This document shows positions 13,541-51,926 of a stretch of 64,000 nucleotides of DNA, one piece after another. The DNA is taken from positions 2,081-66,080 of the IMG/VR virus record IMGVR_UViG_3300009826_000003. One strand, written 5' to 3'. How positions within the stretch are numbered: the stretch's first letter is position 1; each line of letters begins with the position of its first letter. Both the position numbers and the translations under genes were made by a program. This stretch comes from a virus. The notes beneath the pieces are model-generated. The model was not told where the DNA came from. It searched no databases and worked only from the letters and a program-made list of their open reading frames with translations.

Positions 13541-14008
13541 ATGAAATACTTTAAGCGCACCAGATTCGATCACGGACCAATGTTTGTGTCCATCAATGCC
13601 GGACTTTGGGCAGGAGCCATTTATATCCTTTCCCATTTCAATGACCAAACACCTATTTTCGCTGGAATGTCTCTCCAAAGCGAAAATGCAATGGGAATTG
13701 TGCAATTCCTTGGAACGTCTGGTGTCATCTTCGGACAACTAAGTGGCACAAGGGTTTTGAAGCAAGGAATGGATATTCGCGATTCGTATAATATCGTTAA
13801 ATGGTCTTGTGTGGCAGTAATGGTTGCTTTTGGCACGCTAATTGTGGCCACCATTGTTACTGGTGTAATTACTCCGCCCTGGTCTGAGATAATGCTATTG
13901 GCCGCAGGCGCGGAGGTCGGATATTTTCTTGTGGCAACCGAATTGAATTTCGAAGCAAAAAGATTAACGCAGGATTTGAACCGTCGGATAGAATTGATGA
14001 TGCAATAA
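13541..14008 (+). CDS. Multi-pass membrane protein, putative holin
   Basis: About four hydrophobic segments, directly after lysA. Confidence 0.6.
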   Translation: MKYFKRTRFDHGPMFVSINAGLWAGAIYILSHFNDQTPIFAGMSLQSENAMGIVQFLGTSGVIFGQLSGTRVLKQGMDIRDSYNIVKWSCVAVMVAFGTLIVATIVTGVITPPWSEIMLLAAGAEVGYFLVATELNFEAKRLTQDLNRRIELMMQ

Positions 14009-21985: not shown

Positions 21986-22040
21986 TTTTCCATCCCCTAT
22001 CTGTAGGTTGCCGAAATAACCCTTCCGGCAAGGGAAGTGA

Positions 22041-22119
22041 GAGCCAAGGCCGGAATCGAACCGGCACAGGTAGGGCGATCATCTTCGCGGTACCTGCTTT
22101 CATCAGCGGCCACCAGGCT
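22041..22119 (-). ncRNA. 79-nt tRNA-like RNA with aberrant D and anticodon arms
   Basis: Acceptor AGCCTGG/CTTGGCT (one mismatch), T-arm GCCGG-TTCGATT-CCGGC, central helix CAGGTA/TACCTG. Confidence 0.65.
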
Positions 22120-22522
22120 AGCTCATGTCTAAGGGCGAATCTCATTGCGCCATCAAGCTTTTCAGTTGCGCTCATTGCCTAGCTGGATTGACTAGTTTGT
22201 CAGAACAACTGAAAAGCCAGAAGGCGCAACGGATTTCGCAATCCGTTGCACCCTTTGAGGGATAGAATGGAAAATATTTTCATCTACTACCTAGGGTCCG
22301 TTTCCGCTTCGCCTCTTTCGTCATCTTGCAGCTAGTCCCTTCGCGCGCAACCGCTTTCATCAGGAAACTCCGAATAGTGTTGGCTAGCTCCGCATCTCGC
22401 GGACCTTCGGCTTTCGACTCTGTTCAGTTCTCAAATTTCACGCTGACCCTGGCTGGCGGGGGAAGTTCGTCGGTCCCGTTTGCGCGGGGGAGAGGTTCGC
22501 GCCTCTCCTAACTTCCAACTAC

Positions 22523-22552: not shown

Positions 22553-23414
22553 ATCGGCGTTAATCCCTTGTGGCAGAACACAATTGGACGATACTGAAAG
22601 CCTTACGGTAAGCCTCACTGTAATCCTTACCGAAAGCCTATCCCCAGAAGTGCCAGGTCGCGCACCTAGCGCGCGAAATCCCTTGGCGCGTAAGGGTTTA
22701 ACGCTCTATATCTGGCCTGCGCTGGCTCTTCCTGGTCGAATACCCTGACCAGGGAAAACGTCTGAAATGGCCTGTGGCGCGCGAAAATAACCCTCCTGGT
22801 ACGTCCGTTCATGGGAGCGCTGAAAACGGCTCAGAATCGCTCTGAGCGCCAGCAATGGCCCTTCTAGCGTTTGGCGCTGTGAATCAAGCGCTTTGAGCGT
22901 TTCCGGCCGGAAATCGCTTGGGAAATCGGCTGATTCGCCCTCTAACGCTGCTAGACCTCGCACGGGACCAGAGCCACCAGCAGCGCGGAAACTTCGCCTG
23001 GCGTGGCGCTGAGAAGGGTGTAAGGTGGCCTGCATGGTGGCAGGCTAGCAGGTGGTCCCGACAGGGTATCTCCGCCTGGTCAGAGCACTTGTCTAGACTG
23101 TCTAAGTAAATTGGTCGGTGGTCTGTGGTCAGACCTCGCGCGTAGGGTCGAAGCAAGCGAAAACCCTTGGGAAATCAAGGCTTTCGCAAAAGGGTTGGTA
23201 TATAAGGGATTAACGCAAGAGCCATCTAAATCCAGTTGGTGTCTAAGTTGGCCAATCTGGATGGTGGGCATTTTGCCCAATCTAAACGTTAATCCCTTAT
23301 ATACCAGGTGATTTGACCTCTGACCTCTGTTATGGTAGCGTCTGTATATCCCCTGCTCAGGGGACGGATTCTAGCGAATCCTGTTCTTACACATAGAGAA
23401 TAGAGGAAATCACG

Positions 23415-24245
23415 ATGGCTAATCAGTCAGTCATCAGTGATGCCAAGGTATTTGGGCAATCGGTCAAAGCCGGTGGTTTGTACCTTGGCGTCATTGTGGC
23501 CAGAAACGTCGAACCAGCTTCACCAGGTAGACCTCCGAAAAACGTTCCCAAGGAAACGAATTCGAGCGGCAAGGTCTCAATGAATGAGTTTGCCAAGCTA
23601 TCTGGTGTAAGCCTTGCTACGGTCCAGCGGTATTACCGCGCCTATGAGGAGCTGAGTAAGGCTGAGGCAGGCTTTGAGCCACCAGACCAGTTACAGCCTG
23701 GTGTTGATCCTGCTGAGCTTGAAAACGCTTCTGAGGAAACAACTTCGGAGATGGAAGACCTTTGGAAAAAGTGTGTTCGTCGCGCTCGAAACGGCGATGA
23801 AGACACGAAATCCCAAGGTACAGAACAGAAGTCACCGAAGGAAGAGAAGCCGAAACGTCTGTCGATTGATCCTGAAGATGAGGACAACAACGAACCTAGC
23901 AGCGAAGAGGTTGAGAAGGTCGGAGCAGAATTGCGCCAGGACGCTCAAATCGACGCTGTATCAAAGGAATCCGCGGAGGAAGCTACATTTGAGCTTCTGA
24001 CTGAGTTGATCCAGATTCGGCAGGACATCGAAAGAGCAAAGGAAGCAATGGATTTGGCGGTTATGTATGCGCCAGTAGACGATGAGCGATCCAGCGAACA
24101 ACTGGACTTGATCGAAAACTACGCTACCGCAATCCTTTCCGCGCTCCCCAAGTTCAAGAGCGATGAGGCGGAAGCCAAAGAGCTTGAGAACAAAGAGGTT
24201 TCGGAGCCACAACAGAAACCGGCAACAACTGAAACTAAAAAATAG
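23415..24245 (+). CDS. Acidic early protein with HTH-like segment
   Basis: VSMNEFAKLSGVSLATVQRYY; first rightward gene after the divergent region. Confidence 0.65.
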   Translation: MANQSVISDAKVFGQSVKAGGLYLGVIVARNVEPASPGRPPKNVPKETNSSGKVSMNEFAKLSGVSLATVQRYYRAYEELSKAEAGFEPPDQLQPGVDPAELENASEETTSEMEDLWKKCVRRARNGDEDTKSQGTEQKSPKEEKPKRLSIDPEDEDNNEPSSEEVEKVGAELRQDAQIDAVSKESAEEATFELLTELIQIRQDIERAKEAMDLAVMYAPVDDERSSEQLDLIENYATAILSALPKFKSDEAEAKELENKEVSEPQQKPATTETKK

Positions 24246-24253
24246 AAAGCGAC

Positions 24254-24295
24254 CCTCCACGCGGAATTCATATTCTGTTCTCCGCGTGGAGGTTT
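24254..24295 (+). terminator. Hairpin (terminator or processing site)
   Basis: CCTCCACGCGGA/TCCGCGTGGAGG 12-bp stem followed by only TTT. Confidence 0.55.
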
Positions 24296-24296
24296 C

Positions 24297-24361
24297 GCCG
24301 TTCCCTGGTGGCGCGCTACCCTGCTGTGGTAGCGTGAAAGGTTCAAATCCCTTGAGCGGCA
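24297..24361 (+). ncRNA. 65-nt D-armless tRNA-like RNA, anticodon-position GCT (Ser)
   Basis: Acceptor GCCGTTC/GAGCGGC, 9-bp stem with 7-nt loop CTGCTGT, T-arm AAAGG-TTCAAAT-CCCTT. Confidence 0.65.
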
Positions 24362-24389
24362 CGGTATTTGAGGAAAGGAGATTATAGGA

Positions 24390-24572
24390 ATGGAGCCAGA
24401 ATGGGAAGATCGCTTTTCTGATGATGACATCCAACCGGATGTTGAGCTATCACCAGAAGAGGAAGAGAAACGGAAGATGGCGCAATTAAAGGAATTGTGT
24501 GATCTAGAAGGTCTTCCGTACCCTAACGAATTGCGCGAATATATCGGCAGAATGAGGGGGATAACTGAATGA
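24390..24572 (+). CDS. Small acidic hypothetical protein
   Basis: 60 aa, ATGA overlap with next gene. Confidence 0.65.
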   Translation: MEPEWEDRFSDDDIQPDVELSPEEEEKRKMAQLKELCDLEGLPYPNELREYIGRMRGITE

Positions 24573-27605: not shown

Positions 27606-27705
27606 ATAAACACGTCTACCTGGATGGGAATTTATTAAGAGGTCCAATTCCATCCCACCTCGAAGTAGCAGCATTGAGTGTAAGCAATGCGCTCTCCCAT
27701 TCAGG

Positions 27706-27854
27706 TAGGCTCAAACGGGTTGCGGGACAGTGACATTCACTAGACCGGAGCTAGGAATAAGACACTGTGAAAGAGCAACAGACCTTTTTCCCTACTCAGG
27801 GCAGGCAAATGTTGCATAATCCAGTTTAGTTGTCCCGCAACCTTTTTGAGCCTA
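27706..27854. ncRNA. Candidate ~150-nt structured ncRNA
   Basis: 24-nt terminal inverted repeat (22/24 match) enclosing two branched hairpins, in an intergenic gap. Confidence 0.6.
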
Positions 27855-27887
27855 ATCGTTTCCAAGGAAATAAAAGAAGGATAATTA

Positions 27888-28052
27888 GTGTCTAAAAGCG
27901 TCAACTATGAATTGGCCTATAAGGTGAAATGTCCACAATGTAATGCAGAGCCTAAAAAGCCTTGTATAACAGTGGTATTCAATGCAGGTCAGGTTATGAA
28001 AACCTTTCATTCCGCGCGGTATGCGGCGGCAGGGTGTGAGCAATGGGCATGA
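27888..28052 (+). CDS. 54-aa zinc-finger protein missed by ORF track
   Basis: KCPQCNAEPKKPC...FHSAR; GTG start; ATGA overlap with next gene. Confidence 0.7.
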   Translation: MSKSVNYELAYKVKCPQCNAEPKKPCITVVFNAGQVMKTFHSARYAAAGCEQWA

Positions 28053-35702: not shown

Positions 35703-35878
35703 TGGCTTGGTACGGTATTTTGTTTGTATGCTTAGGCTTTAGCATTTGGAGTCTTGTGTGCGCAATGGTCGGAGCGTCAATTGTGATGACCACGCGCAGG
35801 CAAGCCGATATTGTGAGAGCAGCAGCAGAACAATCGAAATGGCAAGCGCCAGATGACATTTCGGAAATGGGCGAATGA
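35702..35878 (+). CDS. Small membrane protein
   Basis: MAWYGILFVCLGFSIWSLVC... Confidence 0.65.
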   Translation: MAWYGILFVCLGFSIWSLVCAMVGASIVMTTRRQADIVRAAAEQSKWQAPDDISEMGE

Positions 35879-35970
35879 ACTGGAATATCGTCTATCATAT
35901 CGCTAACGCAATTAACGCAATCGCCGTTATCTATCTTCTGATAGAAAGGCATTTTAGAGAATGGAAATAA
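35875..35970 (+). CDS. 31-aa membrane peptide missed by ORF track
   Basis: MNWNIVYHIANAINAIAVIYLLIERHFREWK; ATGA overlap. Confidence 0.55.
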   Translation: MNWNIVYHIANAINAIAVIYLLIERHFREWK

Positions 35971-35976
35971 AAAGGA

Positions 35977-36300
35977 ATGGATGACACGCTTATTCCTGTC
36001 TTCAGACATGCTGGCCAGCAGGACAAAAGGATGTTACGGCATTCTCACGGCTCGAAAGATATTGGCGCACAAGGGAAGTCGATTATCGAAAAGCTCCAAG
36101 ACGATATGGATAGGCAACGAAAGAAGCTGGAAGCCATCGTAACTAAGTATGGTAAAGATGTTCCTATTGAAATAGCATTTCAATTTGAGAGACAACGCGG
36201 AAGGTATGAAGGGATCGCAGCATCTTTAGCTAGAATGCGGAATTCGTCTGTGGCAGAAGAGATTTCGCGGAGTGATGAAAGGTTGGGAATTGAACAATGA
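35977..36300 (+). CDS. Hypothetical protein
   Basis: 107 aa, coiled-coil. Confidence 0.65.
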   Translation: MDDTLIPVFRHAGQQDKRMLRHSHGSKDIGAQGKSIIEKLQDDMDRQRKKLEAIVTKYGKDVPIEIAFQFERQRGRYEGIAASLARMRNSSVAEEISRSDERLGIEQ

Positions 36301-51193: not shown

Positions 51194-51340
51194 GTGCCTT
51201 TCAAATCGAAAGCGCAGCAGCGCTTTGCATTCGGGACGCATCAGCCTTGGGCTAAGACGTGGGCCAGACATACCAAAAGCTTCAAAAAGCTACCTGCTCG
51301 AAAACACAAGCGCCACAAGGGAAGACGAAAGAGGAAGTAA
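51194..51340 (+). CDS. 48-aa basic protein
   Basis: MPFKSKAQQRFAF...RKHKRHKGRRKRK; GTG start after GAAGGTG. Confidence 0.7.
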   Translation: MPFKSKAQQRFAFGTHQPWAKTWARHTKSFKKLPARKHKRHKGRRKRK

Positions 51341-51546
51341 TGCTAGATAGGTTGTGGGAGAAGCTAGCTCAAAAGGTCGCGGTCAGGGTAGGCGAAATTC
51401 TCCAAGCGAATTTGCCGAAGATCATTGAGACCATCGTTAGCACAGTGATAAACGAAGTCTTCAAACGCTATCAAATTCTGGCCCCTACCAACGAAATTCG
51501 AAATACCGTCAACGATATAATGTCTCGAATGGGAATCAGGCGATGA
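51340..51546 (+). CDS. Small hypothetical protein
   Basis: MLDRLWEK..., TAATG overlap. Confidence 0.65.
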   Translation: MLDRLWEKLAQKVAVRVGEILQANLPKIIETIVSTVINEVFKRYQILAPTNEIRNTVNDIMSRMGIRR

Positions 51547-51926
51547 AACGTGATGACATCGTAAAATGGTTGCAGCGCAGGGCAATTCAGGCCGCACCAT
51601 TCGAAGCGTGCGGTTTTATTTTGAACGATGGCGAAATCATCGAGATTCCAAATGGCGCGGAAGACCCTTCGCGTCATTTTTTGATGACCTCTGATGGCTT
51701 GGCGAAAACCCTTAAGCCAGGCCAGATTTCGCGAATTATCGGCATCTGGCATACGCACCCTAAAGGCTCAAATGAGCCTAGCTACACAGACATTCACGCG
51801 ATGAGTATTGGTGCGGTACAACCGGATTGGCTCTATCTGATCGCCACTGGAAGCGCGGTAACCTGGTGGAATCCGAAAGACTATGTGCCACAAGACAATT
51901 CGTTTTGGAATGAATTTGTAGCATGA
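51543..51926 (+). CDS. JAB/MPN+ metalloprotease
   Basis: EACGFI...WHTHPKGSNEPSYTD = E...HxH-x7-S-x2-D. Confidence 0.85.
   Translation: MKRDDIVKWLQRRAIQAAPFEACGFILNDGEIIEIPNGAEDPSRHFLMTSDGLAKTLKPGQISRIIGIWHTHPKGSNEPSYTDIHAMSIGAVQPDWLYLIATGSAVTWWNPKDYVPQDNSFWNEFVA

Follow-up and report, generated by a model that had tools for sequence, protein, structure and literature searches.

A D-arm-less tRNA-like element of an uncultured actinophage is best explained as a member of an unannotated family of tRNA top-half mimics

The DNA analysed here, called the window in the following, is a 64-kb stretch of a 71,237-bp IMG/VR virus record which represents the complete 71-kb genome of an uncultured actinophage. 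The record carries a 123-bp exact terminal repeat. Canonical tRNA or tmRNA genes are absent from the whole 71,237-bp genome; the cultured relatives possess one or two tRNAs each, compared with none in the window phage. The locus of interest lies between two open reading frames at 23415-24245(+) and 24390-24572(+). The upstream gene codes for an HTH-like protein and ends with a TAG stop codon at 24243-24245. It is followed by a hairpin at 24254-24292(+), apparent from sequence and fold, which consists of a 12-bp stem (CCTCCACGCGGA / TCCGCGTGGAGG) and a 15-nt loop and runs into TTTC. A tRNA-like element begins 52 nt after the stop codon. Downstream of it, at 24363-24392(+), a combined trailer and 5′ leader (GGTATTTGAGGAAAGGAG) with a Shine-Dalgarno sequence leads to the ATG at 24390. 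A promoter scan detected no sigma-70-like promoter near the element.

The element comprises 65 nt at 24297-24361(+) and, as read from the sequence, has no D-arm. All of the parts named by the first-pass annotation, i.e. acceptor, linker, 9-bp hairpin, T-arm and terminal A, are present on this strand. The 5′ acceptor strand GCCGTTC (24297-24303) pairs 7/7 with the 3′ strand GAGCGGC (24354-24360), which results in a 7-bp helix including one U-G pair. In the place of the D-arm there is an 8-nt linker, CCTGGTGG (24304-24311), and then a middle hairpin at 24312-24336, evident in sequence and fold. Its 9-bp stem, CGCGCTACC / GGTAGCGTG (24312-24320 / 24328-24336), contains one G-U pair and closes the 7-nt loop CTGCTGT (RNA CUGCUGU; 24321-24327). 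Within this loop the GCT 'anticodon' occupies 24323-24325, the second loop nucleotide (tRNA position 33) is a U and the sixth (tRNA position 37) a purine. The hairpin abuts the T stem with zero junction nucleotides. The T-arm AAAGG / TTCAAAT / CCCTT (24337-24353) forms 4/5 pairs with one A.C mismatch and has a canonical T-loop. The discriminator A24361 is followed by C24362, and CCA is not encoded at the 3′ end. The coaxial stack of acceptor and T helices and the docking of GG on the T-loop are the parts of a tRNA which are read by RNase P, RNase Z and the CCA-adding enzyme; the GG in the linker of the element probably mimics the D-loop G18-G19 in this docking. Furthermore, the 22 nt that run from the T-arm through the discriminator recur without change at the 3′ end of a canonical tRNA on an unrelated viral contig.

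As the first-pass annotation had expected, standard finders miss the element: neither default ARAGORN nor Rfam at gathering score gave any report in the 64-kb window. At a relaxed threshold the Rfam tRNA model RF00005 aligned it end to end with the D-arm deleted, and the score of 19.6 bits, compared with a gathering score of 29, places it outside the canonical bacterial tRNAs. In its metazoan-mitochondrial mode ARAGORN called a D-loop mtRNA-Ser(gct); since this mode yielded 21 calls in total in the 64-kb window, the call carries no weight. The fold has a minimum free energy of −30.2 kcal/mol (z = −3.2), and a descriptor of the whole architecture found no match in 600 shuffled windows. Sequence, fold and shuffles thus bear out a tRNA-shaped RNA without a D-arm at this position. 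Elsewhere in the window the T-loop recurs exactly at 13972(-) and 33711(-) and nearly so at 27641(+), but none of these three sites has a tRNA shape.

Pattern scans of IMG/VR and the JGI metagenomes revealed no further copies of the window element. In IMG/VR the two-loop pattern met nothing but coding-sequence coincidences, and in the metagenomes 29 sequences carried both loops correctly spaced, all of them lacking the stems (29/29). The sole match to the T-arm plus trailer pattern was the phage Indlulamithi itself, and that to the 3′ 22-mer was an unrelated canonical tRNA. A blastn search of the element against 50,697 phage records returned nothing except short T-arm matches.

The nearest cultured relatives are the Mycobacterium phages Cuke, Fowlmouth/MrMiyagi and Indlulamithi; their helicases show 66-67% protein identity. 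A common gene order comprises the HTH-like protein (~250-276 aa), small ORFs, helicase, methyltransferase, exonuclease, ATPase and a second methyltransferase. The HTH-like proteins of the window phage and its relatives are homologous (E = 2e-16 to 2e-23). The upstream protein of the window phage (276 aa) has no relative in IMG/VR or the JGI metagenomes; a closer relative is only P0002 with 60% identity, encoded on a 6.5-kb Logan contig. A search of IMG/VR with the helicase found one relative at 40%, in which the element is absent. In Zenon, a full-length GOLLD RNA (Rfam RF02032, 187.6 bits) was noticed at L040:8252-8711 (KY969628.1 about 51234-51693). It sits in an unannotated 1.1-kb gap between genes 70 and 71, which corresponds approximately in position to a 437-nt non-coding gap of the window (27606-28042) with a large stem structure.

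The slot after the HTH-like gene is filled by a tRNA-Gln(UUG) with a hairpin directly before it in Cuke, Fowlmouth, MrMiyagi and Indlulamithi, and that of Cuke additionally holds a tRNA-Lys. The element occupies this tRNA-Gln slot in the window phage, so the slot keeps a tRNA-shaped RNA. Hairpins between the HTH-like gene and the tRNA or element were located in four phages, at 24254-24292 of the window and at L004:2424-2479, L007:3243-3290 and L006:2925-2945. Their stems measure 11-12 bp (6 bp in Indlulamithi) and their loops are unusually large (10-27 nt); the sequences differ among the four phages and the arrangement is kept. Between the tRNA-Gln and the tRNA-Lys of Cuke (L004:2600-2660) there is, in addition, an unannotated look-alike of an anticodon arm without a T-arm, in which an 11-bp helix (TCGCTTGGTAG / CTACCAAGCGA) surrounds GGGA-CTCATAA-TCCC with a perfect CAU loop.

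Direct alignment to the window element yielded one distant homologue only, which is unannotated and lies in Indlulamithi at L006:3183-3251, 156 nt downstream of the tRNA-Gln of this phage. The alignment is structural and was taken from a covariance model; MAFFT misplaced the acceptor strand. Common to both elements are the T-arm, the 3′ acceptor strand and a trailer of ~25 nt. The next ATG follows at +27/+28 in both phages, and the downstream genes are not homologous. From the T-arm to the trailer the two phages are better preserved than in the remaining aligned intergenic region. The acceptor helix of Indlulamithi, GCCCCAT / GTGGGGC, differs by two double compensatory and two one-sided changes with pairing retained, and its middle hairpin consists of 5 bp and a 9-nt loop, CUUUAGCAC.

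With the window element as its sole building sequence, a covariance model (R1) recovered the Indlulamithi homologue and, in gaps between genes of Predator, Indlulamithi and Zenon, tRNA top halves of smaller size. The Predator member is a bare 33-nt minihelix of acceptor and T arms. A weak R1 match at 22877-22917(-) was judged unconvincing. The second model (R2) was restricted to the acceptor and T arms and was built from five sequences including the window element. It gave 19 matches in the initial set of loci and, at E <= 0.1, 39 matches in five whole genomes (Cuke 9, Indlulamithi 7, Fowlmouth 8, Zenon 10, Predator 5), so that each related genome holds 5-10 copies. Without exception (39/39) they are on the coding (+) strand and fall at ~30-45 kb, within a block of small genes that precedes the helicase. 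Of the Fowlmouth matches, 8/9 occupy gaps in the gene annotation, and the distance from the stop codon to their first nucleotide is 5-19 nt, mostly 9-10 nt. The 52 nt between stop codon and element in the window phage exceed this usual distance because the hairpin intervenes. One Fowlmouth member, L053:2846-2889 (record 35845-35888), is situated inside the annotated 5′ part of gene 47 (35839-36114), whose start may be annotated too far upstream. In MrMiyagi a 126-nt stretch between genes 75 and 76, before the exonuclease gene (L005:7053-7178), has a perfect T-arm and a 7/7 acceptor-like closure and may be a family member with a large insert.

The window element is the top match of R2 with 46.4 bits, a score which is partly due to construction because the element is among the five building sequences; members not used for building reach 21-36 bits. 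The window phage has two R2 matches only, as against 5-10 in the relatives. The other one is a weaker paralogue (17-18 bits) at 22039-22124(-), heading a leftward array of small genes, and the 9-mer CCTGGTGGC follows the acceptor strand both in the window element and in this paralogue (22109-22117(-)). A sequence-independent descriptor matched 15 times in the loci of the relatives, compared with 0.39 in shuffles. In the family alignment 92.9% of the cells are paired and 10 pairs are changed on both sides, which none of 500 shuffles reached and none of the slid controls came near; these values are inflated, as the model served both to choose the sequences and to align them. No Rfam family at gathering score covers the phage elements.

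Two forms can be distinguished. The short forms (42-46 nt) consist of a 6-7-bp acceptor, a linker of ~10 nt usually with UGG(U), a 5-6-bp T stem with a loop of the GGTTCGAnTCC type, and a terminal R-C. The long forms (57-70 nt) have the same parts plus an 8-9-bp hairpin directly adjoining the T stem. The window element corresponds to the long form at every position: its acceptor, within the 6-7 bp of the family, closes on a GGTTCRAnTCC T-arm, the end is R-C, linker and hairpin are arranged as in Fowlmouth L044 and L052, Cuke L047 and Zenon L048, and it occupies, on the coding strand, a gap between genes of the early/replication operons. Most of the members have a (Y)UGGU-like motif after the 5′ acceptor strand and a discriminator A73. 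The acceptor helix and the T-arm are conserved in Indlulamithi and in the family, with compensatory changes in the acceptor helix. What is conserved is the top half (acceptor, GG linker and T-arm) and not the decoding loop. The hairpin loops of the members are unrelated: CUGCUGU in the window, 9 nt in Indlulamithi, and G-rich loops of 4-10 nt in Fowlmouth, Cuke and Zenon. The middle hairpin is free to differ from member to member, so the GCU 'anticodon' of the window element is probably incidental. As a counterpoint, the hairpin of the window element does resemble an anticodon arm with its 7-nt loop, U33 and purine 37, and the other members have no such arm. The window element is best explained as belonging to an unannotated family of tRNA top-half mimics, among which it comes closest to a complete tRNA and which phages of the Cuke / Fowlmouth / Indlulamithi / Zenon / Predator group place between genes of their early operons.

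The position after stop codons, the restriction to the coding strand, the interchange with real tRNA genes and the missing CCA point to a processing signal acting in cis, by which polycistronic phage RNA would be presented to the tRNA-maturation enzymes of the host. We assign this reading a probability of roughly 55%. If the element is transcribed together with its neighbours, RNase P would cut on its 5′ side, before G24297, and the mRNA of the upstream regulator would then end in the 12-bp hairpin, which may protect its 3′ end. RNase Z, which is not blocked in the absence of an encoded CCA, would cut after the discriminator A24361 and thereby give the mRNA of the replication genes a defined 5′ end, 28 nt before the ATG. 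A decoding role of the GCU loop would not be part of this mechanism. The upstream hairpin with its TTT run could also be a terminator, so that little transcript would reach the element, and with only two R2 matches in the window phage this copy could be a relic.

The element had been likened to mammalian mitochondrial tRNA-Ser(AGY), and a minimal tRNA-Ser(GCU) or an anticodon-loop decoy had been suggested. With regard to secondary structure the comparison stands, as a 7-bp acceptor, a short loop replacing the D-arm, an extended anticodon-type helix with GCU in a 7-nt loop, a short variable region and a T-arm occur in both. However, the resemblance is one of convergent shape and is not evidence of a serine adaptor. 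Mitochondrial tRNA-Ser(AGY) decodes, and its T-loop is read by a dedicated mt-SerRS (PMC9976931), whereas the phage has no such partner. Moreover, the T-loop of the phage element is canonical, its middle loop is not conserved, and a long variable arm is required by the SerRS of the phage host, a bacterium. Bacterial serine identity is determined by this arm and by G73, and the anticodon is ignored (PMC9976931). The element has A73 instead, and just 0-4 nt separate the anticodon-type stem from the T stem, which sets it apart from bacterial tRNA-Ser. A class II synthetase core is not encoded by the phage, and AGY makes up 28% of its Ser codons and is not enriched. On these grounds a minimal tRNA-Ser(GCU) is not supported. 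Nor is the anticodon-loop decoy, in view of the unrelated loops of 4-10 nt in the homologue and the long forms, and the conservation of the loop in relatives, proposed as a check, was not found in Indlulamithi, Fowlmouth, Cuke or Zenon. A working D-arm-less tRNA with the anticodon GCU accordingly appears very improbable. The 7-nt loop, in which position 33 is a U and position 37 a purine, the canonical T-loop, the GG in the linker, a 9-bp helix of about the length of stacked D and anticodon stems, the mitochondrial-mode call and the lack of any other tRNA in the phage would all suit such a tRNA. Against it speak, besides the missing serine identity elements and synthetase, the absence of an anticodon-like loop in homologue and paralogues and the codon supplemented by the relatives, which is not AGY but CAA; this codon, served by their tRNA-Gln, accounts for 62% of the Gln codons in the window phage. 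In addition, passages in the literature describe the D-arm-less tRNAs of animal mitochondria as dependent on adapted partners (PMC1636415; PMC9976931), and neither a conserved anticodon loop nor an adapted synthetase was found here. Equally slight is the chance that the excised element is charged and used as a D-arm-less tRNA on bacterial ribosomes or, in a milder version, that the released top-half RNAs would serve as CCA-tagged or charged decoys against defence systems.

A role of the released RNA in trans is less probable than the processing signal and may be regarded as a possible second reading. The RNA would be a stable small RNA which binds or decoys host factors that read the top half of tRNAs; candidates are toxins or defence enzymes acting on acceptor ends, the CCA-adding enzyme, modification enzymes or a synthetase that accepts anticodon-less minimal tRNAs. 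Conservation coincides exactly with acceptor helix, elbow-like linker and T-arm, the early operons of each related genome contain 5-10 copies, and most members end in A73. This nucleotide is of relevance as LeuRS of E. coli charges truncated tRNA-Leu without an anticodon arm if A73 and the contacts between D- and T-loop are kept (PMC9976931). Nevertheless, the fixed distance of 5-19 nt to a stop codon and the exclusive use of the coding strand fit punctuation in cis better than RNA genes, and no partner protein is evident beside the element. The two readings are not exclusive, because a role in trans needs the same cuts. Somewhat less probable still is a functionless remnant in the window phage, i.e. 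a former tRNA gene or family member which lost its D-arm by deletion. This is suggested by the A.C mismatch in the T-arm and the small number of R2 matches in the window phage, and as no near-identical copy exists in the collections searched, purifying selection cannot be demonstrated. On the other hand, acceptor helix (7/7) and hairpin (9/9) are intact, the segment from T-arm to trailer is better kept between window phage and Indlulamithi than the rest of the intergenic alignment in spite of non-homologous downstream genes, and the position-for-position match to the long form, with the hairpin abutting the T stem, argues that the element is not a randomly deleted tRNA. A decayed tRNA-Gln was rejected as well, given that there is no sequence likeness to the tRNA-Gln of the relatives and that Indlulamithi has both tRNA-Gln and element. 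A fold arising by chance, or a phage attachment site that includes a portion of a host tRNA gene, appears essentially excluded on present sequence evidence. In favour of this reading stand the identity of the 3′ 22 nt to a real tRNA end and the former annotation of the upstream homologues in Cuke and Fowlmouth as 'integrase (S-int)'. Yet chance does not account for an architecture found in 0/600 shuffles, and an attachment core would not require the 5′ acceptor strand to covary with the 3′ strand across phages. A tyrosine integrase is absent from the phage; the upstream protein shows weak HTH matches only, and its homologues in MrMiyagi and Indlulamithi are annotated as DNA-binding proteins. 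The attP interpretation was thus rejected.

The proposed processing signal has its closest counterpart in the t-elements of plant mitochondria (Forner et al. 2007, PMC1920247). Both these and the phage elements fold like a tRNA without decoding, have a GGTTCRANYCC T-arm and an acceptor-like helix, and lie beside genes within polycistronic transcripts; the ends of the t-elements coincide with mapped mRNA ends, which are attributed to RNase P and RNase Z (PMC1920247). Once released, t-elements receive non-templated C/CA, and at other junctions their task is taken over by real tRNAs (PMC1920247); the tRNA-Gln of the phage relatives may have a comparable function. In contrast to t-elements, the phage family belongs to bacterial viruses; its members are compact (33-70 nt) and regular, are located mostly 9-10 nt after a stop codon and occur in 5-10 copies per genome. 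A tRNA-like RNA inside a longer transcript is also represented by mascRNA of MALAT1 (Rfam RF01684). There, the RNase P cut creates a structure-protected 3′ end of the upstream RNA, and a small RNA is released. The Rfam mascRNA model gave a weak end-to-end alignment with the element, including a UGGUGGC stretch, at 14.6 bits, which is far below the gathering score of 42.5 and implies no homology. Moreover, mascRNA is eukaryotic and nuclear, whereas the phage elements stand in series between genes. With the accessory tRNAs of mycobacteriophages such as tRNA-Gln(UUG) the element shares the slot, the preceding hairpin, the strand, the T-arm consensus and the lack of an encoded CCA. However, these tRNAs are full cloverleaves with 57 bits on the Rfam tRNA model, as opposed to 19.6 bits, and their anticodons match the A/T-rich codons of the phages. 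Another non-coding RNA of actinobacterial phages is the YrlA-type Y RNA of bacteria and mycobacteriophages, which has a tRNA-like domain recognised by tRNA enzymes (Chen et al. 2014, PMC4201824). In contrast to the element, whose ends form a plain acceptor helix, YrlA possesses a Ro60-binding helix and adjoins the Ro60 gene.

For the window element itself, the practical result is a correction of the reading as mitochondrial tRNA-Ser(AGY). Should the element be charged after all, it would represent the first armless decoding tRNA outside animal mitochondria, and in the milder decoy version released top-half RNAs would blunt host defences aimed at the acceptor ends of tRNAs. If the reading as a processing signal is true, actinobacterial phages use tRNA-shaped signals, interchangeable with tRNA genes, to cut their long early transcripts. 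The mitochondria of animals and plants punctuate transcripts by the same means; no description of tRNA-shaped transcript punctuation in bacterial viruses was found in the literature searched. Many unannotated gaps of 80-100 nt in SEA-PHAGES genomes would then be explained, and for annotators the weak tRNA-like calls in such gaps would be neither tRNAs nor noise. Since Fowlmouth, Cuke and Indlulamithi grow on M. smegmatis, the idea of processing is directly testable in these phages, where the same signals would divide the early operons.
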